From contig CAZFHZ010000001.1 of assembly GCA_964519015.1 (NCBI GenBank), positions 5,476 through 69,475 on the forward strand: 64,000 bases of DNA, read 5' to 3'. Positions 17,911 through 38,368 of the stretch are shown piece by piece. The position numbers and the translations under genes are program-made. The first letter of the stretch is position 1; the number at the start of each line of letters is the position of its first letter. The stretch is from an uncultured Gemmatimonadota bacterium (GTDB lineage Bacteria; Blakebacterota; Blakebacteria; Blakebacterales; CAYUVJ01). The notes beneath the pieces are model-generated. The model saw only the letters and a program-made list of their open reading frames with translations, did no database searches and was not told the origin of the DNA.

Positions 17911-18086
17911 CTGCTGCGGGTCAGGCATGCGAAGCCATCCGGGCAGGAGCCCTCTGCTAATGCTGACTCGGTGAACGCGCCACCTCGATCCCGGCATGCA
18001 TGGGAGGGAGGATAACCCCCGGGGGGGACGCCGTCGCCCCTCAGATCAAGCTGCAGATCGCTCAACTCCTGTTCAGAGAGGCGATG

Positions 18087-19157
18087 TCATCTAAAGAAGG
18101 TGGTCGGAAGGTCCAGCCGCGCGATCGAGCCCAAGCGCCGTGAAACGAAGAAAGCCCTGTTCCCGACCACCGTGATGTCTCCGGCTTCCAGTGAAACAGA
18201 GCTATTGACATGAGTGCTCTTGACAATGGTCCCGTCTTGGCGAAGTCGGATGGCTCTCCCGCCCATGGTGACAATGAAACCGTCATCGCATCGGCCAAAA
18301 CTCACTGAGACGTCCTTGGGACCTCTCGCGTTCGTGTATTCCTGTCGCAGAGAGTCGAACGGGTAGGCCTCCTGAGAGGTCAGAATATCCTTGAGGATCC
18401 TTTGCGTCGACTTGTCCGCTCCCACGAATGCTCCCGACCAATCTACCCGTACTTCGGACTTGAGTTGCGAATCGGCGTACACCCGGAGCGTGGACCAGAA
18501 GGTGCTCAGGGCCGCAAAGGTGCTATCATCAATTCTTGCCATTCGCGTGAATCCCGCGATCCGCCACTGACCGCGATTCGGGGTCACGGACTGCCCGAAC
18601 GTGCGGACGATCTCCCCCTCGGCGTTGAGTTCCACGATGTGATAGTCTTCGGAATCCGTAGCCAGCATGATTCTGTCCACTCCGATGATGACCATGTCGA
18701 ATACTTGGTTCACCAAATGAACCTGAGTAATGAGATTGCCGTCGAGGTCGTACAGGACGAGCCTCCCCAGCCCATTGTCAGCGAGGGCCAGCACTCTCGA
18801 TCCGACCGCGATGCAGGAATGGTCACCTCCCCTCTTGTCGAACTCGAACTCACCGGGACCTGAACCCCGACCCAGGCGCTGCCATCGAAAGCTCAAATCC
18901 GCGTTCAGACATATGATTCCAGATAACGCGGCATCCAGTAGGTAGATGTTCCCGAGGCTGTCGTGGTCGATGGAAACCGGAAGCCCGAACGATTCGAACT
19001 TTCCAGAAACGCTGTATCCGTCCAGGTTGGTCGAGCCTATCGCTGCCGTATCTACGCTACCTGCCCTTTCACAACCTGTCGCCAGGATCGGAATAGCGAC
19101 CACGAATACGAGGAGCAGGGCGAGCTGGCGCCAGCGGGCCGGGGGGTCGTCGCGCAT
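18087..19157 (-). CDS. NHL-repeat / beta-propeller putative lipoprotein, compositionally atypical (low GC).
   Basis: The signal is MRDDPPARWRQLALLLVFVVAIPILATGC. The NHL-like motif is GRGSGPGEFEF. The gene body is visibly lower in GC than its neighbours. The first 15 codons duplicate the MFS start. Confidence 0.6.
   Translation of the reverse strand: MRDDPPARWRQLALLLVFVVAIPILATGCERAGSVDTAAIGSTNLDGYSVSGKFESFGLPVSIDHDSLGNIYLLDAALSGIICLNADLSFRWQRLGRGSGPGEFEFDKRGGDHSCIAVGSRVLALADNGLGRLVLYDLDGNLITQVHLVNQVFDMVIIGVDRIMLATDSEDYHIVELNAEGEIVRTFGQSVTPNRGQWRIAGFTRMARIDDSTFAALSTFWSTLRVYADSQLKSEVRVDWSGAFVGADKSTQRILKDILTSQEAYPFDSLRQEYTNARGPKDVSVSFGRCDDGFIVTMGGRAIRLRQDGTIVKSTHVNSSVSLEAGDITVVGNRAFFVSRRLGSIARLDLPTTFFR
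19111..19157 (-). repeat. Copy B of the ~45-bp direct repeat (lipoprotein gene 5' end).
   Basis: The sequence gaggagcagggcgagctggcgccagcgggccggggggtcgtcgcgcat is in the same orientation as copy A, 4.3 kb away. Confidence 0.8.
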
Positions 19158-19161: not shown

Positions 19162-20544
19162 TCAGGTCCCTGGTCTTAATCCTCTGAGGTAGGCCAGGTA
19201 CCCGCTGTTGAGCGCCTTCCACTTCCGGATGATGGCCTTGGCCTGGAGCTTGACGAAAGCGCTCTCCAGGGAAGGGACCCGGAAGCCCGACAGCAGTGAG
19301 GTGGTCACCCCGCGGGCCGTCTCGAAGACGATGTTGAGGGAGTCGTTCATGACCGCGACCAGGGAGTAGAAGTCCTGGAAGGCCTGCAGCGTCCCCTCCT
19401 GGAGTTCGGAGGGGGTGAAGTTGAGAGGACGGTACACGGCGTGCATGCCGTCGTAGAAGCTCCACATCCGGTGGAGGAGCCGGCCCTCCTTTTCCATCCG
19501 CTTGAAGAACCCGGTCCCCGGCAGGGGGGTCAGGATCATGAACTGGACCGAGCTGAGACGGCTCTTCCGGCAGAAGGCGGCGGTCTCGCGGAAGAGGGCG
19601 GCGTCTTCCTCGTCGCTGCCGAAGATGAACATGCCGTGGATGCTGATCTGATGGGCGTGGAAGACCTCGATCGCCGCCCGGACGTCCTCGGGGGACTGCC
19701 GCTTGTTCATCCCCTCCAGGGTGGCGGGATCGATCGATTCGAAGCCGATGTAGACCCGCAGGCAGCCGGAGCGGCGCATCTTGGCGACCAGTTCGCGGTC
19801 GCGGGTGATATCGGCCCGCACCTGGGCCGTCCACTTGAGTCCCATCTTCCGCCGGATCATCTCGTCCAGCAGGGCGTGGGTCCGCTTCGGGTTGGCCGCG
19901 AAGTTGTCGTCGTAGAAGAAGATCTGGCGGGTCGGGGCCCGCTCCAGGTCCTCGAGCACCCGGGCCGGCGAATGGGTCCGGTAGCCGCGTCCGAACATCT
20001 CGGTCACCGCGCAGAAGTTACAGTCGTAGGGGCAGCCTCGTGAGGTGACCACCGGCGTGATGTTGAGCCGCTCCCGGCCCAGCAGGAGACCGAAGTCGGG
20101 GCTGGGGACCACGTCCAGGTCGCGCAGCCGGGGCCCGGCGACCACCCGCTCGCCGCCGTGCCGGAGCAGGTCGACGATCACCTGCTCCCCTTCCCCGACC
20201 ACCACGTGGTCGGCGCACTCGGCCGCCTCCTCGGGCAGGAAGGAGGGATGGATGCCCCCGATGACGATCTTCCGCCCGGGATACAGGTCGCGGAAGGTAC
20301 GGGCGATTTCGTAGCCTCGCTCGGCGGTCGGGGTGAGCAGACTGAGCAGCAGGAAATCGGTGTCGAGCTCGGCCAGGGTGACGTCGCGGTGCAGCAGGTT
20401 CTCATTGATGATCCGCACCTCGAAACCCGCCTGCTGGAGGATCGTGCCCAGGTAGAGCGGACCCATGAGGGGGAGGTGGAGGTAGTCGGCGAAGACGTTG
20501 GCCTTGACGCCGCGCGGTTCGACGATGAGCACTCGTTTCTTCAT
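19162..20544 (-). CDS. B12-binding-domain radical SAM protein.
   Basis: An N-terminal B12-binding-like domain is followed by the radical SAM CxxxCxxC motif in TSRGCPYDCNFCAV. The gene ends 4 nt before the downstream lipoprotein start. Confidence 0.85.
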   Translation of the reverse strand: MKKRVLIVEPRGVKANVFADYLHLPLMGPLYLGTILQQAGFEVRIINENLLHRDVTLAELDTDFLLLSLLTPTAERGYEIARTFRDLYPGRKIVIGGIHPSFLPEEAAECADHVVVGEGEQVIVDLLRHGGERVVAGPRLRDLDVVPSPDFGLLLGRERLNITPVVTSRGCPYDCNFCAVTEMFGRGYRTHSPARVLEDLERAPTRQIFFYDDNFAANPKRTHALLDEMIRRKMGLKWTAQVRADITRDRELVAKMRRSGCLRVYIGFESIDPATLEGMNKRQSPEDVRAAIEVFHAHQISIHGMFIFGSDEEDAALFRETAAFCRKSRLSSVQFMILTPLPGTGFFKRMEKEGRLLHRMWSFYDGMHAVYRPLNFTPSELQEGTLQAFQDFYSLVAVMNDSLNIVFETARGVTTSLLSGFRVPSLESAFVKLQAKAIIRKWKALNSGYLAYLRGLRPGT

Positions 20545-21026
20545 GACGACTCCTTACGGTCGGGCCGCGCGATCAGGAGCAGGCAGCCGCCGAAGAGGAC
20601 CAGGGAGATGGGCCAGAGACGGGGATCCACGGTGGCTACCAACAGGAACACCCCGCAGATCAGAAGCAGGCCGAGGGCGATGGGGAGGAAGATGCGGCGC
20701 CATCTCCCCCCGAGGACCGGGCCGATGAAGGCCAGCCCCAGGAAGCCGATGAAGAGCGGCCAGAGGTCTCCCAGCAGGGTCCAGGAGGTGTAGTTGAGGA
20801 AGAAGAAGAGGAACGCACAGCAGACCAGATAGATCCCCAGGCCCATCAGGAGCGTGTCCCGGCGGGCCTGGTGGAAGTAGAGCAGGAGGAACCCGGCGCC
20901 CAGGATGAGCGGGAAGAGCGGCCAGAGCCGCCAGAAGCCGTGCACGATCCCGTAGCTCTCCAGGATGAGGATCAGGCCGGAGAGGATGGAGAGGACGGCG
21001 ATCACACCTGTGGCCGGTCGGCTCAT
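20541..21026 (-). CDS. Small polytopic membrane protein, function unknown.
   Basis: The 161-aa protein has 4-5 hydrophobic helices. It overlaps the rSAM start by ATGA, so the two are translationally coupled. Confidence 0.5.
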   Translation of the reverse strand: MSRPATGVIAVLSILSGLILILESYGIVHGFWRLWPLFPLILGAGFLLLYFHQARRDTLLMGLGIYLVCCAFLFFFLNYTSWTLLGDLWPLFIGFLGLAFIGPVLGGRWRRIFLPIALGLLLICGVFLLVATVDPRLWPISLVLFGGCLLLIARPDRKESS

Positions 21027-21199
21027 CGCTCTATTCCTCGGGGGGGCTCCTCGGGAACCCTACCCCCGCCCCGGCAGGGTGTCAAATCCACCAACGGGTC
21101 CCGTTGACCCCCCCCCGGGCGTTCGCTACCTTGCCGTCCGGCCGCGCGGGCCTGTCCCGCCGAGCCCGCATCCACGCACCAGCAAGGAGCCGCGCCCCG

Positions 21200-22393
21200 A
21201 TGGCCCAACGCACCATCGTCGCGATGCCGGGAGACGGCATCGGCAAGATCGTCCTGGCCGAGGCCATCCGTGTCCTGGACGCGGTCGGATTCGACGCCGA
21301 ATACGTCCATGGCGATATCGGCTGGGAGTTCTGGTGCCACGAGGGAGATGCCCTCCCCGAACGCACCATCGAGCTACTCAGGCAGCACAAGATCGGACTC
21401 TTCGGCGCCATCACCTCGAAACCGAAGGACGAGGCGGACGCCGAGCTCGATCCCGCTCTGAAGGGGAAGGGGTATGTCTACTACAGCCCGATCGTGGGAC
21501 TGAGGCAGGTCTTCGACCTGGACGTCTCGGTCCGCCCCTGCATCTCCTTTCCCGGAAACCCGCTCAACTTCGTGCGGCGGAGCCGGGATGGTTCGATCGA
21601 GGAGCCTTTCGTCAACGCGGTCATCTTCCGCCAGAACACCGAAGGGCTCTACAGCGGGGTGGAGTGGACCGACCCGCCGCCGGCCGTACGGGCCGCCCTG
21701 GAAAGCCACCCCAAGTTCAAGCCCTTCCGGGAAGTCCCCGGACCCGACCTGGCCGTCTCCACCCGTATCTTCAGCCGGGGCGCCTGCCGCCGGATTGTCG
21801 AGGCCGCCTTCGCCTATGCCCGCGAGTTCGGCTACCGTTCGGTGACCGTGTGCGAGAAGCCCAACGTGATCCGCGAGACCAGCGGGATGATGGTCAAGGA
21901 GGCCCGCCGGGTCGCCCAGCGCTATCCCGGCATCGCCCTCTGGGAGACCAACATCGACGCCCAGACGATGTGGCTGACCAAGAACCCGGAGGACTACGGA
22001 GTGATCGTGGCCGGCAACATGTTCGGCGACATCATCTCGGACGCCTTCGCCGGCCTGGTCGGCGGGCTTGGCTTCGCCGCCTCCTCGAACGAGGGGCAGG
22101 AAGTGGCGGTGTTCGAACCGACCCACGGCTCGGCCCCCAAGTACGCCGAGCTGGAGCCCAGCATCGTCAACCCGATCGCCATGTTCCTGTCGGCCGCCCT
22201 GATGCTCGACCGGCTCGGGGAGCGGGAGAAGGCCGACCGGGTGCGCCGGGCCATCGCCAGGGTGGTGAAGGAAGGGCGGGTCCGGACCTACGATATGATG
22301 AAGATCGCCGGGGGACCGAAAGCGATCGCACAGGGGGCGGCTTCGACCGAACAGATGACCGAGGCCGTGATCGCGGCCCTGGGCCGCGACTGA
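21200..22393 (+). CDS. Isocitrate/isopropylmalate dehydrogenase family protein (beta-decarboxylating dehydrogenase).
   Basis: The start MAQRTIVAMPGDGIGKIV is preceded by AAGGAG. Family blocks include LRQVFDLDVSVRP and GNMFGDIISDAFAGLVGGLG. Confidence 0.85.
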   Translation: MAQRTIVAMPGDGIGKIVLAEAIRVLDAVGFDAEYVHGDIGWEFWCHEGDALPERTIELLRQHKIGLFGAITSKPKDEADAELDPALKGKGYVYYSPIVGLRQVFDLDVSVRPCISFPGNPLNFVRRSRDGSIEEPFVNAVIFRQNTEGLYSGVEWTDPPPAVRAALESHPKFKPFREVPGPDLAVSTRIFSRGACRRIVEAAFAYAREFGYRSVTVCEKPNVIRETSGMMVKEARRVAQRYPGIALWETNIDAQTMWLTKNPEDYGVIVAGNMFGDIISDAFAGLVGGLGFAASSNEGQEVAVFEPTHGSAPKYAELEPSIVNPIAMFLSAALMLDRLGEREKADRVRRAIARVVKEGRVRTYDMMKIAGGPKAIAQGAASTEQMTEAVIAALGRD

Positions 22394-22424
22394 GCCGACC
22401 CGGCCGACGAAGGAGGAGAACGGG

Positions 22425-23003
22425 ATGATCGATGCCGCGAGGGTGCAGGAGCGCTTCGCCGACCTGCTGGAGATGATCGGGGACGAGCGTCTGCGCGGGC
22501 AGGTCGTGGAGGCGTGGCTGCTCGCCTGTGCCGAAGGGGGCTGGACCGACCTCGAACAGGTCGAGCGGATGCCCTTCTCCCTGCTGACCGACTGCGGCGG
22601 TCTGGGCTTTTTGGAGCACACCGAGGCGGTCACCCGCGGGGCGCTCGGACTGGCCCAGGCCCAGGTGGACGCCTACGAGGAGATGCCCTACCGGATCAAC
22701 TTCGACCGGTTGATCGCCGGGGGCCTGCTCCACGACGTGGGCAAGCTGCTGGAGATCGAACCGGACGGCACTGGGGGCTACCGGATGAGCCGGCACGGAC
22801 GCTCCACCCGCCACCCGATCAGCGGCACGGTGATCGCCGCGAGGGTCGGCCTGCCGGTGGAGGTCCAGAACATCATCGCCTGTCATTCCAAGGAAGGAGA
22901 GGGTCAACCGCGCACGGTCGAGACGATCCTGATCCACCAGGCCGACTTCGCCACCTTCGACCCCTTCACGATGCGGGCCGCGGGCAGGCTGATCGAGGAC
23001 TGA
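22425..23003 (+). CDS. HD-domain (HDIG-type) metal-dependent phosphohydrolase.
   Basis: The HD motif LLHDVGK is present. Downstream His/Asp ligands are IIACHSKEG and HQAD. Confidence 0.7.
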   Translation: MIDAARVQERFADLLEMIGDERLRGQVVEAWLLACAEGGWTDLEQVERMPFSLLTDCGGLGFLEHTEAVTRGALGLAQAQVDAYEEMPYRINFDRLIAGGLLHDVGKLLEIEPDGTGGYRMSRHGRSTRHPISGTVIAARVGLPVEVQNIIACHSKEGEGQPRTVETILIHQADFATFDPFTMRAAGRLIED

Positions 23004-23007
23004 GCGC

Positions 23008-24837
23008 GTGGGCCGGACCCTGATCGAGCAGATCATCGCCGCCCATACCGGCGATGCGGTCGCCCCCGGGGCCACCGTGGAGATGCGGGTGGACCTGCGG
23101 GCGGCCCGCGACTTCGGCGGCGCCAACGTGATCGGGCACCTGGAGGAGCACGGCCTGGGGGTGGCCGACCCCGGACGGACCCTCTTCACCTTCGACTGCA
23201 ATCCGACCGGCTCCGACCAGGGGTACGCGGCCAACCAGCACCGCTGCCGGCTCTTCGCCCGCCGCCACGGCCTGAGGGTCTACGACATCGACCGGGGGAT
23301 CGGCACCCACCTGGTCATCGAGGAGGGGCTGGTCGGCCCGGGGGAGACCTTCGTCTCCACCGACTCCCATGCCAACATCCTGGGGGCGGTCGGCGCCTTC
23401 GGGCAGGGGATGGGGGACCTCGATATCGCCAGTGCCTTCGCCCGCGGTTCGGTCTGGTTCCAGGTCCCCGAGACCGTGCACGTGCACCTGACCGGCGTCC
23501 CTTCGGCCACTGCTACCGCCAAGGACCTGACCCTGGCGCTGGTGCGCCACTTCGGCGCCAAGGGGTTGCTCGGTTGTGCGGTCGAGGTGACCGGGGAGGC
23601 GATCCAGGCACTCGACCTGGCCGGACGCCTCACCCTGGCCTCGATGGCCACCGAGATGGGCGCCATCATCCTCTTCCCCGAGCCCTCGGAGCGGGTGGCG
23701 GCCGAGTACACCCGCCTGACCGGCCGGGATCGGGAGTGGCCGTGGTCCGACCCGGATGCGACCCGGCAGCGGGAGGAGGTCGTGGACATCGACGGGCTGG
23801 AGCCGCTGGTCAGCCGCCCGGGCCGTCCCGAGGACGTGGTGGCGCTGGCCGGGCTGACCGGGACCCCGATCGATTCCGCCTTCCTCGGCTCCTGCACGAA
23901 CGGCCGGCTCGAGGACCTGGCGGCGGCCGCCCGGATCCTGCAGGACCGCCGGGTGGCCGAAGGGGTAGTGCTCAAAGTCGTCCCGGCCACCGACCGGGTC
24001 TGGATCGAGGCGCTGCGGGCCGGACTGCTCGGGATCTTCAAGGAGGCCGGAGCGCTGGTCTCGAACGCCGGCTGCGCAGGCTGCGCGGCCGGACAGGTCG
24101 GACAGACCGGACCCGACGAGACCACCGTCTCGAGCGGCAACCGCAACTTCCCCGGCAAGCAGGGTCTGGGCGAGGTCTTCCTGGCCTCCCCGGAGACGGT
24201 GGCCGCCTCGGCGGTCACCGGGATGCTCACTCCGGCCGATGGGATCGACCGGGCGCCCCCCCGTCCCCGGCGGCTGGTCGTGCTACCGGCAGCCCTCCCC
24301 GATCCGACCCGTCCGGCGGAAGCCCCCGCTCCGCCGCCGGCCGAAGAGCGCCCCACCCTCCTGGAGGGGCGTGTCTGGGTGCTCGACCGCGATTCGGTCG
24401 ACACCGACATGATCTTCCACAACCGGCACCTGGCCCTCACCGACCTCGCGGCCATGGGCCGGCACGCCCTGGGCAACATCCCGGGGTGGGAGGACTTCCC
24501 GGAGCGGGTCCGGCCGGGGGACTTCCTGGTCACCGGAGCCAACTTCGGGGCGGGTTCCAGCCGCCAGCAGGCGGTCGACTGCTTCCGGGCGCTCGGCCTG
24601 AGCGGGGTAATCGCCCCCTCCTTCGGAGCCATCTACGAACGGAACGCGATCAACGCGGGCTTCCCGGTGCTGCACGGTGAGTTGCGGGGGGTGTTGCAGG
24701 AGGGGGAGCGCATCCGGGTGGACCTGGAGACGGGTGCCGGGCAGCGGCTCGAGGAGGGGACCGACTTCCAGGTCGCACCCCTGTCCCCGGTGCCGTTGCG
24801 TATCTACCGGCGCGGCGGCCTGCTGGCCGGGCACTGA
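23008..24837 (+). CDS. Aconitase-family hydro-lyase, LeuC-like large domain fused to LeuD-like small domain through a Pro/Ala-rich linker.
   Basis: The GTG start is at 23008. LeuC-type Fe-S ligands are GSCTNGR and NAGCAGCAAGQ. The linker APPRPRRLVVLPAALPDPTRPAEAPAPPPA leads into a LeuD-like swivel domain (GANFGAGSSRQQAVDCFRALG). Confidence 0.85.
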   Translation: MGRTLIEQIIAAHTGDAVAPGATVEMRVDLRAARDFGGANVIGHLEEHGLGVADPGRTLFTFDCNPTGSDQGYAANQHRCRLFARRHGLRVYDIDRGIGTHLVIEEGLVGPGETFVSTDSHANILGAVGAFGQGMGDLDIASAFARGSVWFQVPETVHVHLTGVPSATATAKDLTLALVRHFGAKGLLGCAVEVTGEAIQALDLAGRLTLASMATEMGAIILFPEPSERVAAEYTRLTGRDREWPWSDPDATRQREEVVDIDGLEPLVSRPGRPEDVVALAGLTGTPIDSAFLGSCTNGRLEDLAAAARILQDRRVAEGVVLKVVPATDRVWIEALRAGLLGIFKEAGALVSNAGCAGCAAGQVGQTGPDETTVSSGNRNFPGKQGLGEVFLASPETVAASAVTGMLTPADGIDRAPPRPRRLVVLPAALPDPTRPAEAPAPPPAEERPTLLEGRVWVLDRDSVDTDMIFHNRHLALTDLAAMGRHALGNIPGWEDFPERVRPGDFLVTGANFGAGSSRQQAVDCFRALGLSGVIAPSFGAIYERNAINAGFPVLHGELRGVLQEGERIRVDLETGAGQRLEEGTDFQVAPLSPVPLRIYRRGGLLAGH

Positions 24838-24851
24838 GGGAGGAGAGAAGC

Positions 24852-26132
24852 GTGGGCACCTTCGCCCAGAACGTGCTGGCCTACGCCGCCGGGCTCGAGA
24901 GCGTGAGCATCGGGCAGATCGTGACGGTGCATCCCCGCCGCCTTCTCACCCACGACAACACGGCCGCCATCATCGAAAAGATCGCCCCGGAACTGGAACG
25001 GTACGGGGTGGCCGACCCCGACCAGCCGGTCATCGTGCTCGACCACGTGGTCCCGGCGGTGGACACCACCACCGCCGACGGACACCGGCGCATCCGCGCG
25101 TTCGTGGCCCGTCACGCTCTGGTGCACTTCTACGATGTCGGCGAGGGGATCTGCCACCAGATCGTGCTGGAACGGGGGCTGGCGTTGCCCGGCCAGGTGA
25201 TCGTGGGGAGCGATTCCCACACCTGCTCCTACGGTGCGGTGGGGACCTTTGCCACCGGCATCGACCGGACCGAGGCGGCCGCCCTGCTGCTGACCGGGGA
25301 GACCTGGCTGCGGGTGCCCGCCTCGATCCGGGTGGTCATGAGCGGGCGGCTTCCGGCCCTGACCTCCGCCAAGGACCTGGTGCTCAGCCTGATCGGCCGG
25401 CTGGGGGCCGACGGGGCCGCCTACCGGAGTGTCGAGTTCCATGGCGAAGTGTCCGCCCTCAGCCTCGAGGAGCGGATCACGATCGCCAACATGGGGGTGG
25501 AGATGGGGGCCAAGACGGCCGTCTTCCCGGTCGATGAGCAGACCCGGGCCTTCCTGGAGTTGGCCGCCCCCGACTGGGACGGCCAGGGGGCGGTCTGGGC
25601 GGACCCGGATGCGGAATACGAGCAGGAGATCCCCCTCGATCTCTCCGCACTGGAACCGGTGGTCGCCCGTCCCGGTGCGGTGGACGCGGTGGTGCCGGTG
25701 GGCGCGGCGGCCGGGGTGCGGGTCCACCAGGTCCTGCTGGGCACCTGCACGAACGGACGGTTGAGCGACCTGCGGGAGGCGGCCGCCCTGCTGGCCGGCC
25801 GGAAGATCCACCCCGGGGTGCGGCTGCTGGTCACCCCGGCCAGCCGCCGGGTCTTCGATGCCGCCCTGGCCGACGGTACCATCGCCGAGTTGAGCCGGGC
25901 AGGGGCGACCATCCTGCCGGCCGGCTGCGGCCCCTGCCTGGGCGCCCATCTGGGTATCCTGGCCCCGGGGGAAGTCTGCCTCTCCACCTCCAACCGCAAC
26001 TTCAAGGGACGGATGGGCACCCCCGACTCCGAGATCTATCTGGGCAGCCCGCTCACGGCCGCCGCCAGCGCCCTGACCGGGGTGATCACCGACCCGCGGG
26101 AGGTGGCGGCCGTCGGAGGAGGAGCCCGATGA
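24852..26132 (+). CDS. Aconitase-family hydro-lyase large subunit (LeuC-like), stand-alone.
   Basis: Family blocks are GSDSHT, LGTCTNGR and LPAGCGPCLG. The GTG start is at 24852. Confidence 0.85.
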   Translation: MGTFAQNVLAYAAGLESVSIGQIVTVHPRRLLTHDNTAAIIEKIAPELERYGVADPDQPVIVLDHVVPAVDTTTADGHRRIRAFVARHALVHFYDVGEGICHQIVLERGLALPGQVIVGSDSHTCSYGAVGTFATGIDRTEAAALLLTGETWLRVPASIRVVMSGRLPALTSAKDLVLSLIGRLGADGAAYRSVEFHGEVSALSLEERITIANMGVEMGAKTAVFPVDEQTRAFLELAAPDWDGQGAVWADPDAEYEQEIPLDLSALEPVVARPGAVDAVVPVGAAAGVRVHQVLLGTCTNGRLSDLREAAALLAGRKIHPGVRLLVTPASRRVFDAALADGTIAELSRAGATILPAGCGPCLGAHLGILAPGEVCLSTSNRNFKGRMGTPDSEIYLGSPLTAAASALTGVITDPREVAAVGGGAR

Positions 26133-26650
26133 GGGTCTGGCGCTACGGTGACGACGTGAACACCGACCAGCTCTTCCCGGGCAAGTACACCTACACCTGC
26201 AGCCGGCCCGAGGAGATCGTCCCCCACCTGCTGGAGGACCTCGATCCCGCCTTCGCCGCCGGGGTGACGCCGGGCGATGTGGTGCTGGCCGGGCGCAACT
26301 TCGGCTGCGGATCCAGCCGGGAGCAACCGGCGGTGGGCCTGCGGACGGCCGGGATCGCCGCGGTGGTGGCCGTCTCGTTCGCCCGCATCTTCTACCGGGC
26401 GGCCATCAACCAGGGACTGCTGCTGGTCGAGTCCCCCGAGGCGGTCGCCGCCTGGCGGGAGGGGGAGGAGATCCAGCTCGACCCGGCGGCCGGCCGGATC
26501 ATGGTGGGCGGGCGCACCTTCCTCATCCCCCCCCTCCCCCCCCTGCTCCTCCAGATCCAGGAGGCCGGGGGGCTGCTTCCCGCCGTACGCCGCCGCCTGG
26601 CCGCCCGAGACGCTGAACCGGGAACCCGGTTTCAGGAGGAGACCCGATGA
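26129..26650 (+). CDS. Aconitase-family hydro-lyase small subunit (LeuD-like).
   Basis: The block AGRNFGCGSSREQP is present. The gene overlaps the upstream LeuC-like gene by ATGA. Confidence 0.8.
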   Translation: MRVWRYGDDVNTDQLFPGKYTYTCSRPEEIVPHLLEDLDPAFAAGVTPGDVVLAGRNFGCGSSREQPAVGLRTAGIAAVVAVSFARIFYRAAINQGLLLVESPEAVAAWREGEEIQLDPAAGRIMVGGRTFLIPPLPPLLLQIQEAGGLLPAVRRRLAARDAEPGTRFQEETR

Positions 26651-27927
26651 GTCCCCGAACGCAGGAGCGGAAGCGGAACGGACCGGCCGCGGCCGAAGCA
26701 GGCCACCGGGGTCCCGAGGTGCGGAGCGACTGCTGGGTGCGGGTCGATCCGGCCGGCCCGTCCGGGCTGGCGATCACCAGCAAGGTGGCCGACCTCTACG
26801 GGACCAGCCTCCGGGAATTGCTCGAGGCCGGCGTGCACGGGCTCGGTCTGGAAGAGGCGGCGGTGACCGTGGAGGACCAGGGGGCCCTCCCCTGGGTGAT
26901 CCTCGCCCGTCTGGAGGCGGCCGCCCGGGCGGCCTGCCCGGACCTGACGGCCCGACTGGAACCCCCCGGTCCACCGGTGGTCCGACGACCGGTACGGGAT
27001 CGACTGCGCCGCTCCCGGCTCTACCTGCCGGGGAACACGCCGAAGTTCATGCTCAACGCCGCCCGGCATGTGCCCGACGGCGTGATCCTGGATCTGGAGG
27101 ACTCGGTCGCCCCTCCCCGCAAGGCCGAGGCCCGTCTGCTGGTCCGTAACGCCCTGCGCTGCGGCGAGTGGGGGGAGTGCGAGTTGATGGTGCGGATCAA
27201 CCAGCTCCCGGCCGGGTTGGAGGACCTGGCCGAGATCCTCCCCGAGAGTCCCGAGGTGATCCTGATACCCAAGGTGGAGGACCCCGGTCAGGTGGTCGAA
27301 GTGGAGCGGGCCTGCACCTCGCTGCTGCGGGGTCGGGAGGTGCCGCCGCCGCTGCTCATGCCGATCGTGGAGAGCGCCCGGGGTGTCCTTCAGGCCTTCC
27401 CGATCGCCTCGGCCAGCCCGCAAGTGGTCGCTCTGACCATCGGACTGGAGGACTATACCGCCGACCTGGGTGTGGAACGCACCGTAGAGGGACGTGAGTC
27501 GTTCTGGGCCCGGGCCATGCTGGTCACCGCTGCCCGGGCCGCGGGCGTCCAGCCGATCGACACCGTCTTCAGTGACGTCGAGGACCTGGTCGGGCTCGAG
27601 GCCGCCGTGCTTGAGGCGAAGGGGCTGGGTTTCGTGGGCAAGGGGTGCATCCATCCCCGCCAGATCCCGACCGTCCACAATGCCTTCGCCCCCACCTCCG
27701 GGGAGATCGAGAAGGCCACCGCCATCGTGGCCGCGTACGAACAGGCCCGCGTGCGTGGAGACGGGGTGGTCGCCCTGGGGAGCAAGATGATCGATCCCCC
27801 GGTGGTGGAGCGGGCGCTGCAGACAGTCGAAGCGGCCTTGCGGCTCGACCTGCTTGACCCCGACTGGCGCGAGCAGGAGCCCCCTCCCCCAGCTACGACC
27901 GCCCCCCCCTCCGAGGGGGGGGAGTAG
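26647..27927 (+). CDS. Citrate-lyase-like acyl-carrier (gamma, CitD) fused to beta subunit (CitE, HpcH/HpaI aldolase fold).
   Basis: The N-terminal ~95 aa align to CitD (EVRSDCWVRVDP ~ E. coli ESGDVMIRI, with the prosthetic-group Ser conserved; DQGALPWVILARLEAA ~ DDKGALDCILRARLEAL). The remainder carries CitE/HpcH blocks (SRLYLPGNTPKFM, DLEDSV, GKGCIHPRQI). Confidence 0.75.
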   Translation: MSPRTQERKRNGPAAAEAGHRGPEVRSDCWVRVDPAGPSGLAITSKVADLYGTSLRELLEAGVHGLGLEEAAVTVEDQGALPWVILARLEAAARAACPDLTARLEPPGPPVVRRPVRDRLRRSRLYLPGNTPKFMLNAARHVPDGVILDLEDSVAPPRKAEARLLVRNALRCGEWGECELMVRINQLPAGLEDLAEILPESPEVILIPKVEDPGQVVEVERACTSLLRGREVPPPLLMPIVESARGVLQAFPIASASPQVVALTIGLEDYTADLGVERTVEGRESFWARAMLVTAARAAGVQPIDTVFSDVEDLVGLEAAVLEAKGLGFVGKGCIHPRQIPTVHNAFAPTSGEIEKATAIVAAYEQARVRGDGVVALGSKMIDPPVVERALQTVEAALRLDLLDPDWREQEPPPPATTAPPSEGGE

Positions 27928-27949
27928 GCCCAGAAAGGACGGCCGCGTC

Positions 27950-29512
27950 ATGCCGGAACCGGGCATACCTCGGGTCACGAACGCCTCGGGCCGACCGGTC
28001 CCCGAACGGGTCAACGGGGTCCCCCAGGTCCCCTTCGCCGGAGTCGGCGTCCATCGGCCCGACGGGCGGAAGGTCGCCCCCCCCATCCGTTCCTGCGCCG
28101 ACTATCCCCCCGACGGGGACAAACGGCTCCCTTCCCTGAAGGCCGCCCTGGAAGCGTGCGGGGTGGAAGACGGGATGACCATCAGCACCCACCACCACCT
28201 GCGCGACGGCGACCAGGTGGCGGTCGCCCTCTTCGACGCGGCGGCCGAGATGGGACTGCGCGAGCTGGTCTGGTTCCCCAGCGCCGCCTTCCCCTGTCAC
28301 GCCCCCCTCATCCGCCATCTCGACTCGGGGGTCATCCATCACATCGAGGGGAGCCTGAACGGCCCGCTCGGGGAATACTGCTCGCGGGGGCGGATGAAGG
28401 GCACCCACATCCTCCGCTCCCACGGTGGGCGCTGGCAGGCCATCCAGGACGGCGAGGTGCACATCGACCTGGCCGTGATCGCCGCACCCAACGCCGACCC
28501 CTTCGGGAACGCCAACGGGCTGGAGGGTCCCGCCGCAACCGGAGGACTCGGCTTCGCCCTGGCCGACTCCCGCTTCGCCGACCGGGTCGTGGTGGTCACC
28601 GACCACCTGGTGCCCTTCCCCGCCGTCCCCTGGCAGATCCAGGGTAACGATGTCGACTTCGTGGTCGTGGTGCCCAGCCTGGGGGACGCCTCGAAGATCG
28701 TCTCGGGGACCACCCGAATCACCCGCAGCCCCGACCGCATGCTGATCGCCGAGCTGGCCGCCCGCTTCACCGCCGAAGCGGGTATCCTGCGCGACGGTTT
28801 CTCCTTCCAGGCGGGCGCGGGGGGGACCGCCCTGGCCTACGCCCTCTACCTGAAGGAGATGATGAAGCGGGCCGGGGTGAAGGCGCGCTTCATCCGCGGC
28901 GGGACCACCCGCTATCTGGTGGAGATGCTCGAGGAGGGATTGACCGACTACCTGCTCGACGGTCAGACCTTCGACCTGGACGCGGTACGCTCCATGGGAC
29001 GCAACCCCGGTCACGTCATGACCAGTCCCTTCACCTCCTACAATTACCACGGCAAGGGGAACTTCGCCTCGCTGGTGGACGTGGTCGTGCTGGGGGCCAC
29101 CGAGGTCGACCTGGCCTTCAACGGCAACGTGGTGACCCACTCCGACGGGCGGCTCCTCCACGGCATCGGCGGCTGGCAGAACTGCCTGTTCGGCCGGTGT
29201 GTCATCCTGGCCGTGCCGGCGGTGCGCGACCGCATCCCGGTGATCGTGGACGAGGTGACCACCCTGTGCGGGCCGGGGGAGCTCATCGATGTGGTGGTGA
29301 CCGAGCGCGGGATCGCCGTCAATCCCCGCCGCGGCGACCTGCTCGAGGCGGTGAAGGGTTCCCCCCTGCCGATCCGGCCGCTGGAGGAGATCAAGGCCGA
29401 GCTCGACCGGGTCTGCGGGGTGCCGGAGAGGCCCTCCCGGAGCGGGGAGGTTGTTTCGGTGGTCAAGTGGGTCGACGGCACCCTCCTCGACTGCATCCAC
29501 CGGGTGGACTGA
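27950..29512 (+). CDS. citF: Citrate lyase alpha subunit (citrate CoA-transferase, CitF family).
   Basis: The ~520-aa protein starts at MPEPGIPRV. Its length and blocks are CitF-like (HHHLRDGD, GTTRITRSPDRMLIAELAA). Confidence 0.8.
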   Translation: MPEPGIPRVTNASGRPVPERVNGVPQVPFAGVGVHRPDGRKVAPPIRSCADYPPDGDKRLPSLKAALEACGVEDGMTISTHHHLRDGDQVAVALFDAAAEMGLRELVWFPSAAFPCHAPLIRHLDSGVIHHIEGSLNGPLGEYCSRGRMKGTHILRSHGGRWQAIQDGEVHIDLAVIAAPNADPFGNANGLEGPAATGGLGFALADSRFADRVVVVTDHLVPFPAVPWQIQGNDVDFVVVVPSLGDASKIVSGTTRITRSPDRMLIAELAARFTAEAGILRDGFSFQAGAGGTALAYALYLKEMMKRAGVKARFIRGGTTRYLVEMLEEGLTDYLLDGQTFDLDAVRSMGRNPGHVMTSPFTSYNYHGKGNFASLVDVVVLGATEVDLAFNGNVVTHSDGRLLHGIGGWQNCLFGRCVILAVPAVRDRIPVIVDEVTTLCGPGELIDVVVTERGIAVNPRRGDLLEAVKGSPLPIRPLEEIKAELDRVCGVPERPSRSGEVVSVVKWVDGTLLDCIHRVD

Positions 29513-29597
29513 TCGCTCCCGACGACCTCTTCCCGGCCGCGGTTCCTGCACCCGTCCACCCACCCTCGATCCCACATCAGGCTACCGGAACGAGAAC

Positions 29598-29649
29598 GGC
29601 ACCCGGAGGTGTGACGCCACCGGGTGCCGCCGGTCACCTACTGGTGACC
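29598..29649. terminator. Two adjacent GC-rich hairpins between convergent genes, a likely bidirectional terminator region.
   Basis: GGCACCCGG-13nt-CCGGGTGCC is a 9-bp perfect stem, followed by GGTCACC-tact-GGTGACC. Both sit in the 158-nt gap between the citF end and the lipoprotein end. Confidence 0.4.
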
Positions 29650-29670
29650 GCGCTCAAGCAGTTTTCCCGC

Positions 29671-30804
29671 TCACCGGGGAGTGACGGGTATGGACGGCGG
29701 GAGGGGCAGGACCATGGTGGGATGGGCTGGGCTGAGCATATACCCCTTGGTCCGATCCGATCCGATCTTCATCGGGGGGGTGTGGGCTTTCAGGGTGTTG
29801 CTCATGGGTGCCCAGGAGAAGACCACGATGCCCAGCACCTCGTGGGGGGGCGAACCCTGGTTGGAGGCGACCAGCGCGTCGAAGAAGATCCGGTCGCCGC
29901 TCTGGGTGGGCCACCACAAGCAGCCGATCGGGAAGGCGTGCCGGACCGGGGAGGTCTCCTCCCCGGGATGGGTCGGACCGGTGAGCGGGCTGCCCACCAA
30001 CTCGTAGCCCATCGCGCTCAGGTCGGCGAGAAAAGCCGCTTGTTCACGGACGTGATCGAACCGGCCGACCGAACCGTCGGCGATGTAGTAGCTGGTGAAA
30101 TCGCCCGGCACGAAAACCTGCGAACTGTCCGGGCTGAAGACCGCATAGGTGGGCAGTTCGGTAGTGGTGATGGGGAGCTGCTCGGCCCCCGAGCCGTCCG
30201 GATGCGCCCGCCAGAGCTGGGCGTCCGCTCCCGTGGTCCCGGTGACCTTGGCGAAGAGGACCCAGCTCCCCCCCTGCGTGAAAGCGGGGGTCCAGTAGGA
30301 GAGGGAAGCGGAGGCGTCGCTGGTGATCATCGTGGGGGAGCCCTCCGGACCCGTCTGCACGATGATGTTATAGCCATCCGTGTCCGAACCGTCCATGTAG
30401 GCGAAACGCAGCTTGTGGGAGGGATCGATGGCGGGCGCCATCTGGTAGGTCCCCACCCCGATCACGTCGGTGAACTCGAGCAGGACGGTGTGCATGAAGG
30501 TGAGCTTGTCGTAGCCGAAGATGATGTGGTAGTGGTAGTTGGTGTCGAGGGTGAGGGTCGGTCCGAAGTAGTCGTTGTCCCCCCGGCGGTAGCCGTACCG
30601 CGTGCTGTTGGTGGACGGTACAAAGAGGGTGTAGAGTCCCAACATCTGCTCGGGGTCCTCGGTCAGGTGCCCGCTTATCAGGATGCGTCCGGCCACCAGC
30701 ACGTTCGAGCGGTAGTAGACGTCGTTCGGTCCGACGGTGTCGCAGCCACTGCCCAACAGCAGGACGAAGGAGAATGGGACCAGACACATTGAGCGCAAAC
30801 GCCG
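29671..30804 (-). CDS. Hypothetical lipoprotein (moderately low GC).
   Basis: The signal plus lipobox is MRRLRSMCLVPFSFVLLLGSGC. I recognised no catalytic motifs. An SPDSS/HPDGSG beta-propeller-like segment is present. Confidence 0.45.
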   Translation of the reverse strand, partial: RRLRSMCLVPFSFVLLLGSGCDTVGPNDVYYRSNVLVAGRILISGHLTEDPEQMLGLYTLFVPSTNSTRYGYRRGDNDYFGPTLTLDTNYHYHIIFGYDKLTFMHTVLLEFTDVIGVGTYQMAPAIDPSHKLRFAYMDGSDTDGYNIIVQTGPEGSPTMITSDASASLSYWTPAFTQGGSWVLFAKVTGTTGADAQLWRAHPDGSGAEQLPITTTELPTYAVFSPDSSQVFVPGDFTSYYIADGSVGRFDHVREQAAFLADLSAMGYELVGSPLTGPTHPGEETSPVRHAFPIGCLWWPTQSGDRIFFDALVASNQGSPPHEVLGIVVFSWAPMSNTLKAHTPPMKIGSDRTKGYMLSPAHPTMVLPLPPSIPVTPR

Positions 30805-31012
30805 CATTACAGTATCCCTCACGCTAAGAGGCTCAGGTCGCCTGCCGGTCCGGAGAGGATAATAGATTTCCCGAAGTTCGGGAAGTCCTCCTCACTCTTG
30901 AAGAGGGCCCGGTGCTCGGTCGCTACTACCGTCACCCCCGCGGATTCCTTCTAGTGTCCCGAGTCGGAAATCGGACTTCCGGCAGACGACCCTTGACGTC
31001 CTCATTGTACTA

Positions 31013-31440: not shown

Positions 31441-32564
31441 GCCAGACCCAGAAGTCATCCCCCGTCGCCGGGTTGCTGACCCTGCTGAACCCCGATCGCT
31501 TCGCGATCTCGCTCCGGGCCGATTTCCGCTTCGCCCCGATCAACGTGCTCATACTGCTGGTCGTCTTCGTGCTCGGGTTAGCCATCCACCTGGGCCTGCA
31601 CGGCTTCAGTGTGGCCGCGGTGGGTTTCAGCCTTGGTACCGCCGCCCTCTTCGCGCTTATCCTGCGGCTCCACCAGATCTGGGAGACCGCCCTCATCGCC
31701 GGTACCCTGGTCTGCCTGGCCATCTACCTCCAGCTGCGGCCCGACAGCGAGGTCCTGCTGACCGCCGCCGTAGTGGCGTTGCTCCTCGCCCCGAGTGTCC
31801 AGATCGCCTACCAGTGGGAGCAAGCCGTGCTGCTGCGGTTCGGCCGCTTCAAGGGACTGCGGCGCTCCGGGCTCTTCCTGCTCCTGCCGGTGGTCGACAA
31901 GGTGGCCCAGTTCGTCGACCAGCGTATCCGGGTGAGCGACTTCAGCGCCGAGACCACCCTGACCAGTGACACCGTACCGGTGAACGTGGACGCCATCGCC
32001 TTCTGGATGGTCTGGGACCCGCAGAAGGCGGTGCTGGAGGTGGAGCAGTTCGAGACAGCGGTCATCCTCTCGGCCCAGACCGCCCTGCGGAACGCCATCG
32101 GCAAGCACGAGTTGGCCACCCTGTTGAGCGAGCGGGACCAGCTGGGAGGGGAGATCCAGAAGGTGCTGGACGATAAGACCAGCGCCTGGGGGATCACTAC
32201 CCAGGCGGTCGAGATCCGCGACATCATCATCCCGCAGGCCCTTGAGGATGCGATGTCCCGGCAGGCCCAGGCGGAACGGGAGCGGCAGAGCCGGATCATC
32301 CTGGGTACGGCCGAGACCGAGATCGCCGAGAAGTTCGCCAAGGCCTCCGAGCACTACAAGAACAACCCTGTGGCGCTCCACCTGCGGGCGATGAACATGG
32401 TCTACGAGGGGCTGCGCAAGAAGGGCTCGATGATCATCGTCCCCTCCACCGCGGTGGAGACGATGGGACTGGGCGCGCTGGGCGGGCTGACCTCGTTCGA
32501 CCGCACGCTCGGTGCGGCGCTGGAGTCCGCGGAGGAGGGGGAATCGGAGCGCGGCACCTCCTGA
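31437..32564 (+). CDS. SPFH/band-7 (stomatin/prohibitin-like) domain membrane protein.
   Basis: N-terminal TM helices precede the SPFH core (YQWEQAVLLRFGRFKGLRRSGLFLLLPVVDKV...). The gene overlaps the GntR gene by ATGA. Confidence 0.75.
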   Translation: MSQTQKSSPVAGLLTLLNPDRFAISLRADFRFAPINVLILLVVFVLGLAIHLGLHGFSVAAVGFSLGTAALFALILRLHQIWETALIAGTLVCLAIYLQLRPDSEVLLTAAVVALLLAPSVQIAYQWEQAVLLRFGRFKGLRRSGLFLLLPVVDKVAQFVDQRIRVSDFSAETTLTSDTVPVNVDAIAFWMVWDPQKAVLEVEQFETAVILSAQTALRNAIGKHELATLLSERDQLGGEIQKVLDDKTSAWGITTQAVEIRDIIIPQALEDAMSRQAQAERERQSRIILGTAETEIAEKFAKASEHYKNNPVALHLRAMNMVYEGLRKKGSMIIVPSTAVETMGLGALGGLTSFDRTLGAALESAEEGESERGTS

Positions 32565-32574
32565 AGGCAGGCAC

Positions 32575-37760: not shown

Positions 37761-37779
37761 GGACCCGGAGGGAACGAAC

Positions 37780-38337: not shown

Positions 38338-38368
38338 GGGGACGCCCTCCAGACATAGGGGTATAGCC

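Follow-up and report, generated by a model that had tools for sequence, protein, structure and literature searches.

Background

In fungi, the isomerisation of homocitrate to homoisocitrate needs two enzymes of the aconitase family, aconitase and homoaconitase (PMC3556520). Two fates of 2-oxoadipate are known, conversion to glutaryl-CoA by the 2-oxoadipate dehydrogenase (OADH) complex and to D-2-hydroxyglutarate by HglS (PMC7286885; bioRxiv 10.1101/450254). A lyase made up of CitF and a CitE-CitD fusion has been noted in Ignavibacterium album (IALB_1146/1147), where it was called an 'ATP-independent citrate lyase' and an unconventional reverse tricarboxylic acid (TCA) cycle was speculated upon; the available text of that report gives this species a complete TCA cycle and no leu/ilv genes, lysC, asd or dapABD (PMC3362086). 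Caldithrix abyssi has a separate homocitrate synthase (Hcs) with LysWXZYJ, while other homologues of the α-aminoadipate (AAA) pathway were placed 'in TCA cycle loci' (PMC5317091). Here we analyse a 64-kb stretch of DNA from an uncultured Gemmatimonadota bacterium (the window), in which an operon of seven genes joins a dehydrogenase, an HD-domain protein, two hydro-lyases of the LeuC/LeuD type and a citrate-lyase-like complex. We know of no enzyme that has been identified as the homocitrate (de)hydratase of the bacterial AAA pathway.

We found that this operon is one copy of a self-contained module present in more than 10 bacterial phyla. Our reading of the module, which we favour but hold as tentative, is that it would link 2-oxoadipate with 2-oxoglutarate and acetate through the homocitrate series, with a citrate-lyase-type complex replacing the acetyl-CoA-dependent homocitrate synthase and with the catabolic direction as the preferred one. 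Every protein of the module belongs to a known superfamily, and the pathway as assembled appears undescribed. The literature that we searched contained no description of the module or of such a route, and no mention of a homocitrate lyase or of homoaconitase, homoisocitrate dehydrogenase (HICDH) and citrate lyase together. A preliminary description of this DNA had suggested an undescribed route for a substituted malate or tricarboxylate; the homocitrate-like option is the best supported of those it listed, whereas citramalate and methylmalate now look unlikely.

Organization of the operon

The window was studied by ORF (open reading frame) listing and translation, Pfam and NCBIfam scans, and tblastn. 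The operon occupies positions 21200-29512, its seven genes all on the plus strand and in one direction, and a hairpin follows it:

21200-22393, plus strand: dehydrogenase, 397 aa, with an ATG start, an AAGGAG ribosome-binding site and a Pfam Iso_dh match (4.7e-73)
22425-23003, plus strand: HD-domain protein, 192 aa
23008-24837, plus strand: LeuC-LeuD fusion (hydro-lyase class 2), 609 aa, GTG start, Pfam Aconitase and Aconitase_C
24852-26132, plus strand: LeuC (class-1 large subunit), 426 aa, GTG start
26129-26650, plus strand: LeuD (class-1 small subunit), 173 aa
26647-27927, plus strand: fusion of CitD (acyl carrier protein, ACP) with CitE, hereafter CitDE, Pfam ACP (2.2e-13) and HpcH_HpaI (2.4e-46)
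27950-29512, plus strand: CitF, 520 aa from ATG, Pfam CitF (1.5e-129)
29597-29629, plus strand: strong GC-rich hairpin about 85 nt past the citF stop, RNAfold -27.7 kcal/mol on a 50-nt stretch

The distances between successive genes are 31, 4, 14, -4, -4 and 22 nt. Both negative values are ATGA overlaps, and the second of them couples LeuD translationally to CitDE. Coordinates, spacings and family scans confirm the gene content, order and tight linkage first reported for this operon. The hairpin, which has no T-run after it, may mark the end of the transcription unit; a scan for consensus promoters and terminators was uninformative and did not detect it. An Rfam scan of the window and four of the related loci found no riboswitch.

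The preliminary description held the operon to be neither a leucine operon nor a classical citrate fermentation operon, and both statements stand. No LeuA-family match was found in the window or in the 163 related loci described below, and the leuB, leuC and leud equivalog cut-offs were not reached. CitC, CitX and CitG were likewise not found in the window or in those loci, and the lyase proteins miss their equivalog cut-offs. With E. coli LeuA, CitC, CitX, CitG and CitT as tblastn queries, there was no match anywhere in the window, and its annotated ORFs include no leu, lys or cit accessory genes.

Conservation of the module across phyla

The related loci comprise 83 genome loci with CitDE as the anchor and 80 metagenome loci with the dehydrogenase as the anchor. 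The genome scan, made with a CitDE alignment and one genome per species, returned 80 loci. Recurrent families were defined by tblastn mapping and all-against-all clustering of every ORF in the loci. There are at least 8000 homologues of the CitD-CitE fusion, thousands of them at 55-68% identity in metagenome-assembled genomes (MAGs) of many phyla, and the best 120 are all fusions; an exact-sequence look-up of the CitDE of the window in public assemblies gave no match. Hosts in the CitDE scan are Gemmatimonadota, Acidobacteriota, Myxococcota, Planctomycetota/Phycisphaerae, Ignavibacteria (including Melioribacter roseus), Bacteroidota (including Prolixibacter denitrificans DSM 27267), KSB1, Krumholzibacteriota, Eisenbacteria, WOR-3, Aminicenantes, Fimbriimonadales and Anaerolineales. 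Six families recur in the 83 genome loci plus the window:

CitDE: 84 loci
CitF: 74 loci
Hydro-lyases: 53 loci
Dehydrogenase: 37 loci
HD protein: 36 loci
PrpD/MmgE-like protein: 23 loci

At least one partner gene was found in 26 of the 35 CitDE loci with full flanks. The same six families return when the dehydrogenase serves as the anchor, and nearly all contigs of at least 9 kb in that set carry, besides CitDE-CitF and the HD protein, a hydro-lyase together with a PrpD-like or class-2 protein, frequently in the order HD-PrpD-hydro-lyase-dehydrogenase-CitDE-CitF. Locus L001 has the same seven genes as the window, and L003, on a Calditrichota chromosome, has five of them and is without the split LeuC/LeuD. 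From neither anchor did any neighbour recur beyond the six families. Gene order differs between phyla while the content is kept, which points to functional coupling. The operon is a widespread module and not an oddity of one genome, and its lyase had already been noted in I. album (PMC3362086).

The same gene set recurs in 163 loci and many phyla, so the arrangement is far beyond chance. A fortuitous juxtaposition of leucine/lysine-type and citrate-lyase gene sets with no shared function would agree with the about one quarter of full-flank CitDE loci that consist of CitDE-CitF with no other genes within 10 kb, and with some triads of dehydrogenase, HD protein and hydro-lyase that have no lyase nearby. 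We consider it hardly credible, and it is already contradicted by the ATGA coupling between LeuD and CitDE, by the recurrence of the association from both anchors in many phyla and several gene orders, and by the lack of leuA, leuB or citCXG near the operon or in the flanks of the related loci, where a simple neighbouring of leu and cit regions would place them. Searches with the E. coli CitC, CitX and CitG proteins covered the window and the flanks of related loci, and gave no tblastn match in the window and 83 loci (E<=0.01) or in the 80 further loci (1e-8); CitT, the citrate carrier, had no match in the window or the 83 loci (E<=0.01). LeuA/Hcs-family genes were found in neither the window nor the 163 loci, and none of the loci has linked ilv or leu genes.

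Some loci depart from the common pattern. A CitD-CitE fusion with no CitF detected nearby occurs in L011, L014, L029, L037, L051 and L078, mostly from Planctomycetota, and in L006 CitDE is followed by the dehydrogenase, the HD protein and a class-2 fusion, again without CitF. Either CitF lies elsewhere in these genomes or another transferase is used in some lineages. In M. roseus (L055, 7760-8158) a DUF559 (endonuclease-like) gene stands between the homoaconitase-type and PrpD-like genes, apparently as a small mobile or selfish element that has entered the module. Other flanking genes code for peptidases (S46, M1, M16, M20) and, in Ignavibacteria, for acetyl-CoA synthetase, which is compatible with an amino-acid catabolism that yields acetate.

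The HD protein mostly comes directly after the dehydrogenase. It has the HD fold and the metal ligands H...HD...H...H...D, and we take it as a putative metal-dependent hydrolase; it is a fixed member of the module. Triads of dehydrogenase, HD protein and hydro-lyase with no lyase within 10 kb were found in L087, L154, L157 and L163. In L086 (10001-10576), an archaeal contig with ribosomal S28e/L7Ae and TiaS, a member of the HD family 58% identical to that of the window stands alone beside a GAPDH gene, 3 kb from a CitMHS carrier; the family is thus not strictly confined to the module. The idea that the HD protein is tied specifically to the lyase cofactor is weakened by these triads and by the stand-alone archaeal copy.

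The dehydrogenase

The dehydrogenase had been called 'IDH/IPMDH-type', after isocitrate (IDH) and isopropylmalate (IPMDH) dehydrogenases. The family assignment holds and can be sharpened to a homoisocitrate-dehydrogenase-like protein with an NADP-type signature. Its best NCBIfam models are AksF2 and AksF, the methanogen HICDHs (252 and 246, against cut-offs of 540 and 500). The IDH equivalogs are not reached (PRK08997, the best, 225 against 510; prok_nadp_idh, 154 against 567), the leucine equivalog leuB gives 148 against 353, and the LEU2 equivalog was not reached in the scan of the window proteins (413 against 611). In the PDB its best relatives, with similar scores, are the NAD-dependent IDH 6LKY and the Thermus HICDH.

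More can be drawn from the helix that reads the γ-moiety of the substrate. In the window this helix is 'YYSPIVGLRQ', and the motif S-P-I-V-x-[LM]-R occurs without exception in the full-length orthologues examined. A fragment search with the helix picked out the HICDH of Schizosaccharomyces pombe (3TY3, 'YSSPIVALRK'), while the helix of the Thermus HICDH ('GAIRYLRR') differs. IDH helices carry S-x-N at this place ('RSVNVTLRQ' in 6LKY, 'SSINVAMRR' in 6LTF, 'RSLNVALRQ' in E. coli). In E. coli IDH this pair, S113 and N115, binds the γ-carboxylate of isocitrate. The module enzymes keep the Ser and have Ile in place of the Asn in all the full-length orthologues examined. The helix is suggestive and not proof, because IPMDH is also hydrophobic at two of these positions. 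The cofactor motif 'HGSAPKYA' corresponds to K344/Y345 of E. coli Icd, the established NADP determinants, and its two residues (K314 and Y315, the 'APKY' signature) are invariant; LeuB, the Thermus HICDH and NAD-dependent IDHs have 'APDIA'. Known HICDHs, the biosynthetic ones included, generally use NAD. By these features the enzyme resembles a dehydrogenase of the NADP type whose substrate helix is of the fungal HICDH kind, and the NADP-type signature suits a reductive step.

These features bear on the explanation that family-level annotation gives by default, a TCA-type module in which an ATP-independent citrate lyase, aconitases and an NADP-isocitrate dehydrogenase interconvert 2-oxoglutarate plus CO2 with oxaloacetate plus acetate. 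It could take the form of the 'unconventional reverse TCA' of I. album, of a branch of citrate/glutamate fermentation or of an oxidative branch independent of citrate synthase. We rate this explanation as unlikely, though it deserves weighing at each enzyme. In the dehydrogenase, the 'APKY' signature and an insertion resemble E. coli Icd and speak for it, while the Ile that stands for the IDH Asn in every full-length orthologue examined speaks against it.

An ORF of 487 aa with an ATG start (20965-22428, plus strand) overlies nearly the whole dehydrogenase gene in the wrong frame and has no family match; the true frame is 21104/21200-22393. With a GC content of about 0.61-0.72 in the window, this ORF is a typical high-GC shadow and could mislead gene callers.

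Hydro-lyases and the PrpD-like protein

The preliminary description had noted two paralogous hydro-lyases, one split and one fused, in the same operon. Both do belong to one conserved unit, but they are not simple paralogues with a common task: the catalytic motifs of the fused one are altered, and a PrpD-like protein replaces it in other phyla. Class 1 is the split LeuC plus LeuD of the window, found in fused form in Ignavibacteria and Planctomycetota (about 660 aa) and in Bacteroidota (about 595 aa), whereas class 2 is the 609-aa fusion, whose Pro/Ala-rich linker lies at about aa 410-450.

The class-1 LeuC of the window passes two subfamily models, TIGR02086 and TIGR01343 hacA_fam (490 against 385.7), the latter of which also covers isopropylmalate (IPM) isomerases, and reaches no equivalog. 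The window class 1 scores 403 against 550 with HacA_Meth, 291 against 530 with TIGR00139 and 140 against 229 with PRK14023; the leucine cut-offs are not reached either (leuC, 206 against 560; leud, 141 against 246), and LeuD gives 160 against 109 with TIGR02087. The fused class-1 enzymes of M. roseus (L055) and of a Phycisphaerales chromosome (L060) pass the homoaconitase equivalog TIGR00139 with 877 and 765 (cut-off 530), and fail every aconitase and LeuC equivalog. Class 1 keeps the canonical motifs of the aconitase family ('THDNT', 'CHQ', 'DSH', 'NRNFKGRMG'). Its small-domain loop 'NTDxLFPGKYTYT' is common to the split form and the fused forms of Ignavibacteria and Bacteroidota, with a variant in Planctomycetota (L060). 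Set against solved subunits ('ARYLVYT' in the MJ1277 IPM isomerase, 'GRYNLTK' in PH1724, 'GPYLRTT' in the MJ1271 homoaconitase), the specificity loop 'PGKYTYT' of the LeuD is, by its residues, polar like those of the homoaconitase types. We propose that class 1 may act as a homoaconitase.

Class 2 lies under all NCBIfam cut-offs for large subunits. In comparison with MJ0499 it has 'ARDFGG' for 'VHDITG', 'GIGTHL' for 'GVCHQV' and 'NRNFPGKQG' for 'NRNFRGRQG'; the three Fe-S Cys are kept, while the His of 'HD' is Arg, 'CHQ' is 'THL' and 'GRxG' is 'GKQG'. These replacements are conserved in 22 orthologues, and the small-domain loop reads 'DTDMIFHNRHLALTD'. Over the 52 loci with partner genes, class 1 occurs with class 2 in 19 and with the PrpD-like protein in 19, and all three were found together in one. 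Class 2 and the PrpD-like protein are nearly mutually exclusive and so behave as alternatives. We propose for class 2 a putative role as a (de)hydratase between homocitrate and cis-homoaconitate. A separate dehydratase beside an aconitase-family hydratase is known in two cases, the methylcitrate cycle and the fungal isomerisation of homocitrate, and it is the fungal two-enzyme arrangement that the second dehydratase beside class 1 recalls. A pathway of the 2-methylcitrate type was considered and set aside, since 2-methylisocitrate, being a tertiary alcohol, is not oxidisable by a dehydrogenase and the PrpD-like proteins score 91-98 bits against cut-offs of 575-950.

The hydro-lyases also bear on the TCA-type module, for which one aconitase would suffice with citrate, yet a class-2 or PrpD-like dehydratase is nearly always present; and the orthologous class-1 enzymes that pass the homoaconitase equivalog fail the aconitase ones. 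The same enzymes raise another explanation, a hydrophobic or small 2-alkylmalate as the substrate (citramalate, 2-isopropylmalate or similar) in a reverse or alternative 2-oxoacid pathway of the Ile/Leu type with a citramalate-lyase-like complex. The hydro-lyases are of the LeuCD type, the dehydrogenase has Ile/Val at the positions of Leu90/Leu91 of IPMDH, the clostridial citramalate lyase is a known ACP-dependent relative of citrate lyase, and a BrnQ-type branched-chain amino-acid carrier lies 6 kb downstream. We nevertheless find such a substrate very improbable, considering that the LeuD loop has the polar 'YTYT' where the IPM/citramalate isomerase of Methanocaldococcus jannaschii has 'YLVY', that the orthologous fused enzyme matches the homoaconitase equivalog, and that a single LeuCD does both half-reactions, which would leave the second dehydratase unexplained. 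In addition, no ilv/leu genes are linked in any locus, and the leuB, LEU2 and leud cut-offs are not reached.

The lyase complex

The CitD-CitE fusion comprises an acyl carrier domain (aa ~20-98) and a C-C lyase domain of the CitE type, acting on acyl-ACP (aa ~119-400). It reaches neither the citE equivalog (240 against 443) nor the citD equivalog (42 against 63.5), and CitF falls just short of its own (474.8 against 501.45). Identity to E. coli CitE/CitF is 37-40% (40% for CitF), and CitF aligns with PDB 2HJ0 at 3.5e-115; searches of PDB sequences with CitDE and CitF gave no clue to the substrate. Ser27, in 'VRSDCW', lines up with Ser14 of CitD, which bears the prosthetic group there, and 21 fusions have it without exception; it is the putative site for 2'-(5''-phosphoribosyl)-3'-dephospho-CoA. 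Cys29 of 'RSDCW' as a direct thioester carrier needing no prosthetic group was dropped, as some orthologues have 'RSDL'. CitF is predicted to be an acetyl-ACP:tricarboxylate ACP-transferase of the CitF type. No CitX, CitG or CitC that could provide the carrier domain with its cofactor and first acetyl group is linked.

For the TCA-type module, the lyase gives evidence on both sides. The CitF score close to the cut-off, the identity to the E. coli proteins and the name given to IALB_1146/1147 in I. album (PMC3362086) favour citrate, and so do a class I fumarase with a CoA-ligase gene near the cluster in L001 and the fumarase of the window; citE and citD, on the other hand, are far under their cut-offs, and citC, citX, citG and citT are never linked. 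As I. album has a complete TCA cycle reported and no leu genes, the dehydrogenase and hydro-lyase of the cluster may have been counted there as Icd and Acn. The papers and supplements on M. roseus give no locus tags for Acn or Icd.

Links to lysine catabolism and the proposed pathway

The genes run CitDE-CitF-dehydrogenase-HD-class 2-class 1 in P. denitrificans (L062) and in a Bacteroidales MAG (L066), and two further genes come directly after them. The first codes for an aldehyde dehydrogenase that passes the equivalog NF050084 'L-piperidine-6-carboxylate dehydrogenase' (796-801 against 730), and an aldehyde dehydrogenase of the same L-piperideine-6-carboxylate (P6C) dehydrogenase type adjoins the module in L018 and L064, from Eisenbacteria-type MAGs, making four loci with scores of about 800 against 730. 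The next gene of L062 and L066 encodes an AlaDh_PNT protein that aligns end to end with the lysine-ketoglutarate reductase (LKR) domain of human AASS (8E8T, 1e-40). LKR and P6C/2-aminoadipate semialdehyde dehydrogenase constitute the saccharopine route from lysine to 2-aminoadipate, which is one transamination from 2-oxoadipate. This linkage is rare but specific, and it fits the homocitrate reading.

Altogether, the evidence points to the homocitrate series over citrate or isopropylmalate. In the pathway that we propose, the NADP-type dehydrogenase would interconvert 2-oxoadipate plus CO2 and NADPH with homoisocitrate, the class-1 LeuC/LeuD would act as a homoaconitase between homoisocitrate and cis-homoaconitate, and the class-2 fusion, or the PrpD-like protein in other phyla, would take cis-homoaconitate to homocitrate and back. 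CitF would then load homocitrate onto the acetyl-ACP domain with release of acetate, and the CitE domain would split homocitryl-ACP into 2-oxoglutarate and acetyl-ACP. In the catabolic direction, this would be a finish of lysine/2-aminoadipate breakdown independent of O2, CoA and ATP. We infer the identity of the substrates, the direction and the assignment of the half-reactions; the catabolic direction is favoured because citrate-lyase-type equilibria favour cleavage, because the cofactor signature is of the NADP type and because no extra genes other than catabolic ones were linked to the module in any locus.

The opposite direction has to be taken seriously as a rival, since the overall reaction balances and the diaminopimelate pathway appears to be missing in some hosts. 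The lyase would run in reverse, forming homocitrate from acetate and 2-oxoglutarate with no need of CoA or ATP, pulled by the oxidative decarboxylation, and would make 2-oxoadipate available to an AAA-type lysine synthesis in lineages without the diaminopimelate route. No Hcs/LeuA homologue was found in the 163 loci, which leaves the lyase as the sole candidate for the C-C step in the module. With two substrates and two products besides NAD(P)H, the net reaction does not seem thermodynamically forbidden. I. album is reported to be without lysC, asd, dapABD and all leu genes (PMC3362086), and C. abyssi has AAA homologues in its TCA loci. On the whole we judge this biosynthetic use quite improbable, given that citrate-lyase-type equilibria favour cleavage at physiological concentrations, that the NADP-type signature is unlike that of the Thermus thermophilus HICDH and of biosynthetic HICDHs, which use NAD, and that the extra linked genes (P6C dehydrogenase, LKR) are catabolic. 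Moreover, C. abyssi already has Hcs, and the Rfam scan showed neither a lysine riboswitch nor any other element upstream.

Several observations weigh against the homocitrate reading and keep it tentative. Substrate specificity is not securely readable from sequence. The dehydrogenase lies under every NCBIfam equivalog cut-off and its architecture is like that of E. coli IDH, with an insertion after the EGxY motif besides the NADP signature, while the T. thermophilus HICDH carries the NAD-type 'APDIA'; the Ile/Val at two helix positions, as aligned here, is matched by hydrophobic residues in IPMDH. The LeuC and LeuD of the window reach the subfamily models (hacA_fam, IPMI_arch) and no homoaconitase equivalog, and CitF is near its citrate-lyase cut-off. 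To work, the lyase must receive a prosthetic group and be acetylated a first time, and enzymes for these two tasks were not found. Lysine-catabolic genes are linked in 4 of the 163 loci and absent from the window, and the class I fumarase near the cluster in the window and in L001 fits a TCA-type reading. The separate Hcs of C. abyssi suggests that the dehydrogenase and hydro-lyases could serve lysine biosynthesis in some hosts.

A bolder version of the proposed pathway, which we regard as doubtful, is a 'reverse 2-oxoacid elongation' made up of a reductive carboxylation, an isomerisation by two enzymes and the action of an ACP-bound homocitrate lyase. 2-Oxoadipate would be shortened to 2-oxoglutarate and possibly, were the second hydro-lyase and a promiscuous dehydrogenase/lyase to accept the citrate series too, to oxaloacetate, with one acetate per turn and without CoA, ATP or O2. 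The class-2 and PrpD-like proteins would be analogous homocitrate (de)hydratases, and the HD protein, which is YhaM-like, would have a new accessory role, for example in maturation or turnover of the carrier cofactor or in regulation of the dehydrogenase.

If the homocitrate reading is true, lysine-derived 2-oxoadipate would be converted to 2-oxoglutarate and acetate along a route that present pathway maps do not show, without oxygen (unlike HglS) and without CoA or a 2-oxoacid dehydrogenase complex, in widespread and mostly uncultured peptide-degrading bacteria (Gemmatimonadota, Acidobacteriota, Ignavibacteria, Bacteroidota, Planctomycetota, Calditrichota, KSB1). Thousands of genes annotated as citrate lyase, isopropylmalate isomerase or isocitrate/isopropylmalate dehydrogenase would be re-assigned, and reconstructions of the TCA and reverse TCA cycles would change, such as the unconventional one proposed for I. 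album. The module would offer candidates for the homocitrate dehydratase step of bacterial AAA pathways and, run in reverse, an acetate-driven, thioester-free elongation of 2-oxoacids of interest for metabolic engineering. The cultured carriers M. roseus and P. denitrificans make the hypothesis directly testable.

Surroundings of the operon

Divergently upstream of the operon (19162-21026, minus strand) lie genes for a B12-binding radical SAM protein, whose best models (BchE, the ladderane-lipid radical SAM protein, HpnR) are all under cut-off, and for a membrane protein of 161 aa that matches LiaF-TM weakly; in other loci neither is a recurrent neighbour of the module. Further upstream are the small and large subunits of a [NiFe] hydrogenase (14871-15911 and 15915-17405), and the other strand encodes a maturation protease of the HycI type (17440-17997). 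Downstream, the ORF 29671-30822 (minus strand) converges on the end of the operon, and 29197-30792 (plus strand) is probably its shadow. Four minus-strand ORFs have no Pfam match (18087-19157, 29671-30822, 32402-33109 and 46046-48118), the first two having no NCBIfam match either.

The two genes of a split class I fumarase (alpha, beta) and, after them, one for an S46 dipeptidyl-peptidase occupy 36912-40534, 7 kb downstream of the operon. In L001 (881-4550) the same trio lies directly upstream of the module, showing that synteny is rearranged between relatives. The carrier of the BrnQ/LIVCS branched-chain amino-acid type (35339-36706, minus strand) passes TIGR00796. An ornithine cyclodeaminase (OCD)/mu-crystallin family protein (6962-7939, minus strand) is closest to archaeal alanine dehydrogenase, under cut-off. 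A link of either protein to the operon could not be shown. A connection from lysine to pipecolate through the OCD/mu-crystallin and FAD oxidase genes (5.2-7.9 kb) was considered and rejected, since the oxidase is of the CrtI family and the OCD homologue is closest to the archaeal enzyme.

An unrelated second HD protein of 373 aa (44928-46049, minus strand; HD and HD_5, HD-GYP-like) adjoins Trk potassium-uptake genes (41999-44933). The window also has a heavy-metal efflux system of the resistance-nodulation-division (RND) type with OEP, a CusB-like adaptor and CusA/CzcA (49215-55454) and, on the strand opposite to the RND genes, an ORF with weak matches to multihaem cytochrome and UshA-like proteins (55556-57253).

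Comparison with known systems

The module shares with the classical citCDEFXG systems of Klebsiella, E. coli and Leuconostoc an ACP, a CitE lyase, a CitF ACP-transferase and the prosthetic-group serine. It differs in that ACP and CitE are fused, that the citE and citD scores are far under cut-off, that no CitC, CitX, CitG or citrate carrier is linked in the window or the 163 loci, that the lyase is set among AAA-type enzymes, and that its substrate is probably not citrate. IALB_1146/1147 of I. album (Liu et al. 2012, PMC3362086) likewise pair a CitE-CitD fusion with CitF, and Ignavibacteria loci carry the whole module; the available text of that account deals with the two lyase genes and does not mention the linked dehydrogenase, HD, homoaconitase-type and PrpD-like genes or homocitrate as a substrate.

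The 2-methylcitrate cycle (PrpC, PrpD, AcnB, PrpB) is similar in using a PrpD-family dehydratase and an aconitase-family enzyme for one half-reaction each. The module, however, has no PrpB or PrpC, its PrpD-like proteins are far under cut-off, and 2-methylisocitrate is unfit for its dehydrogenase. With the coenzyme B elongation of methanogens (AksA, AksD/E, AksF), it has in common AksF2/AksF as the best models of the dehydrogenase, as well as archaeal-type hydro-lyases, but the scores are about half of the cut-offs, AksA is lacking, the hosts are bacteria and a lyase is present.

The upper AAA pathway of fungi (Lys20/21, Aco2 plus Lys4, Lys12) and of Thermus (Hcs, LysT/LysU, Hicdh) resembles the module in its dehydrogenase of the IPMDH family, which in the module has the helix motif of the fungal HICDH, in a homoaconitase of the Lys4 or LysT/U type, the role proposed for class 1, and, as in fungi (PMC3556520), in a second dehydratase for the homocitrate half-reaction. 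In place of homocitrate synthase, the module has the ACP-dependent CitDE/CitF; it also differs in its NADP-type dehydrogenase, in the HD protein, in a second dehydratase that is a new LeuCD-fusion subfamily or PrpD-like and not aconitase, and in a direction that is likely reversed. Like the OADH complex and HglS, the module would join lysine-derived 2-oxoadipate to central metabolism, but its chemistry would be entirely different, with a carboxylation, an isomerisation and a C-C cleavage that require neither O2 nor CoA.

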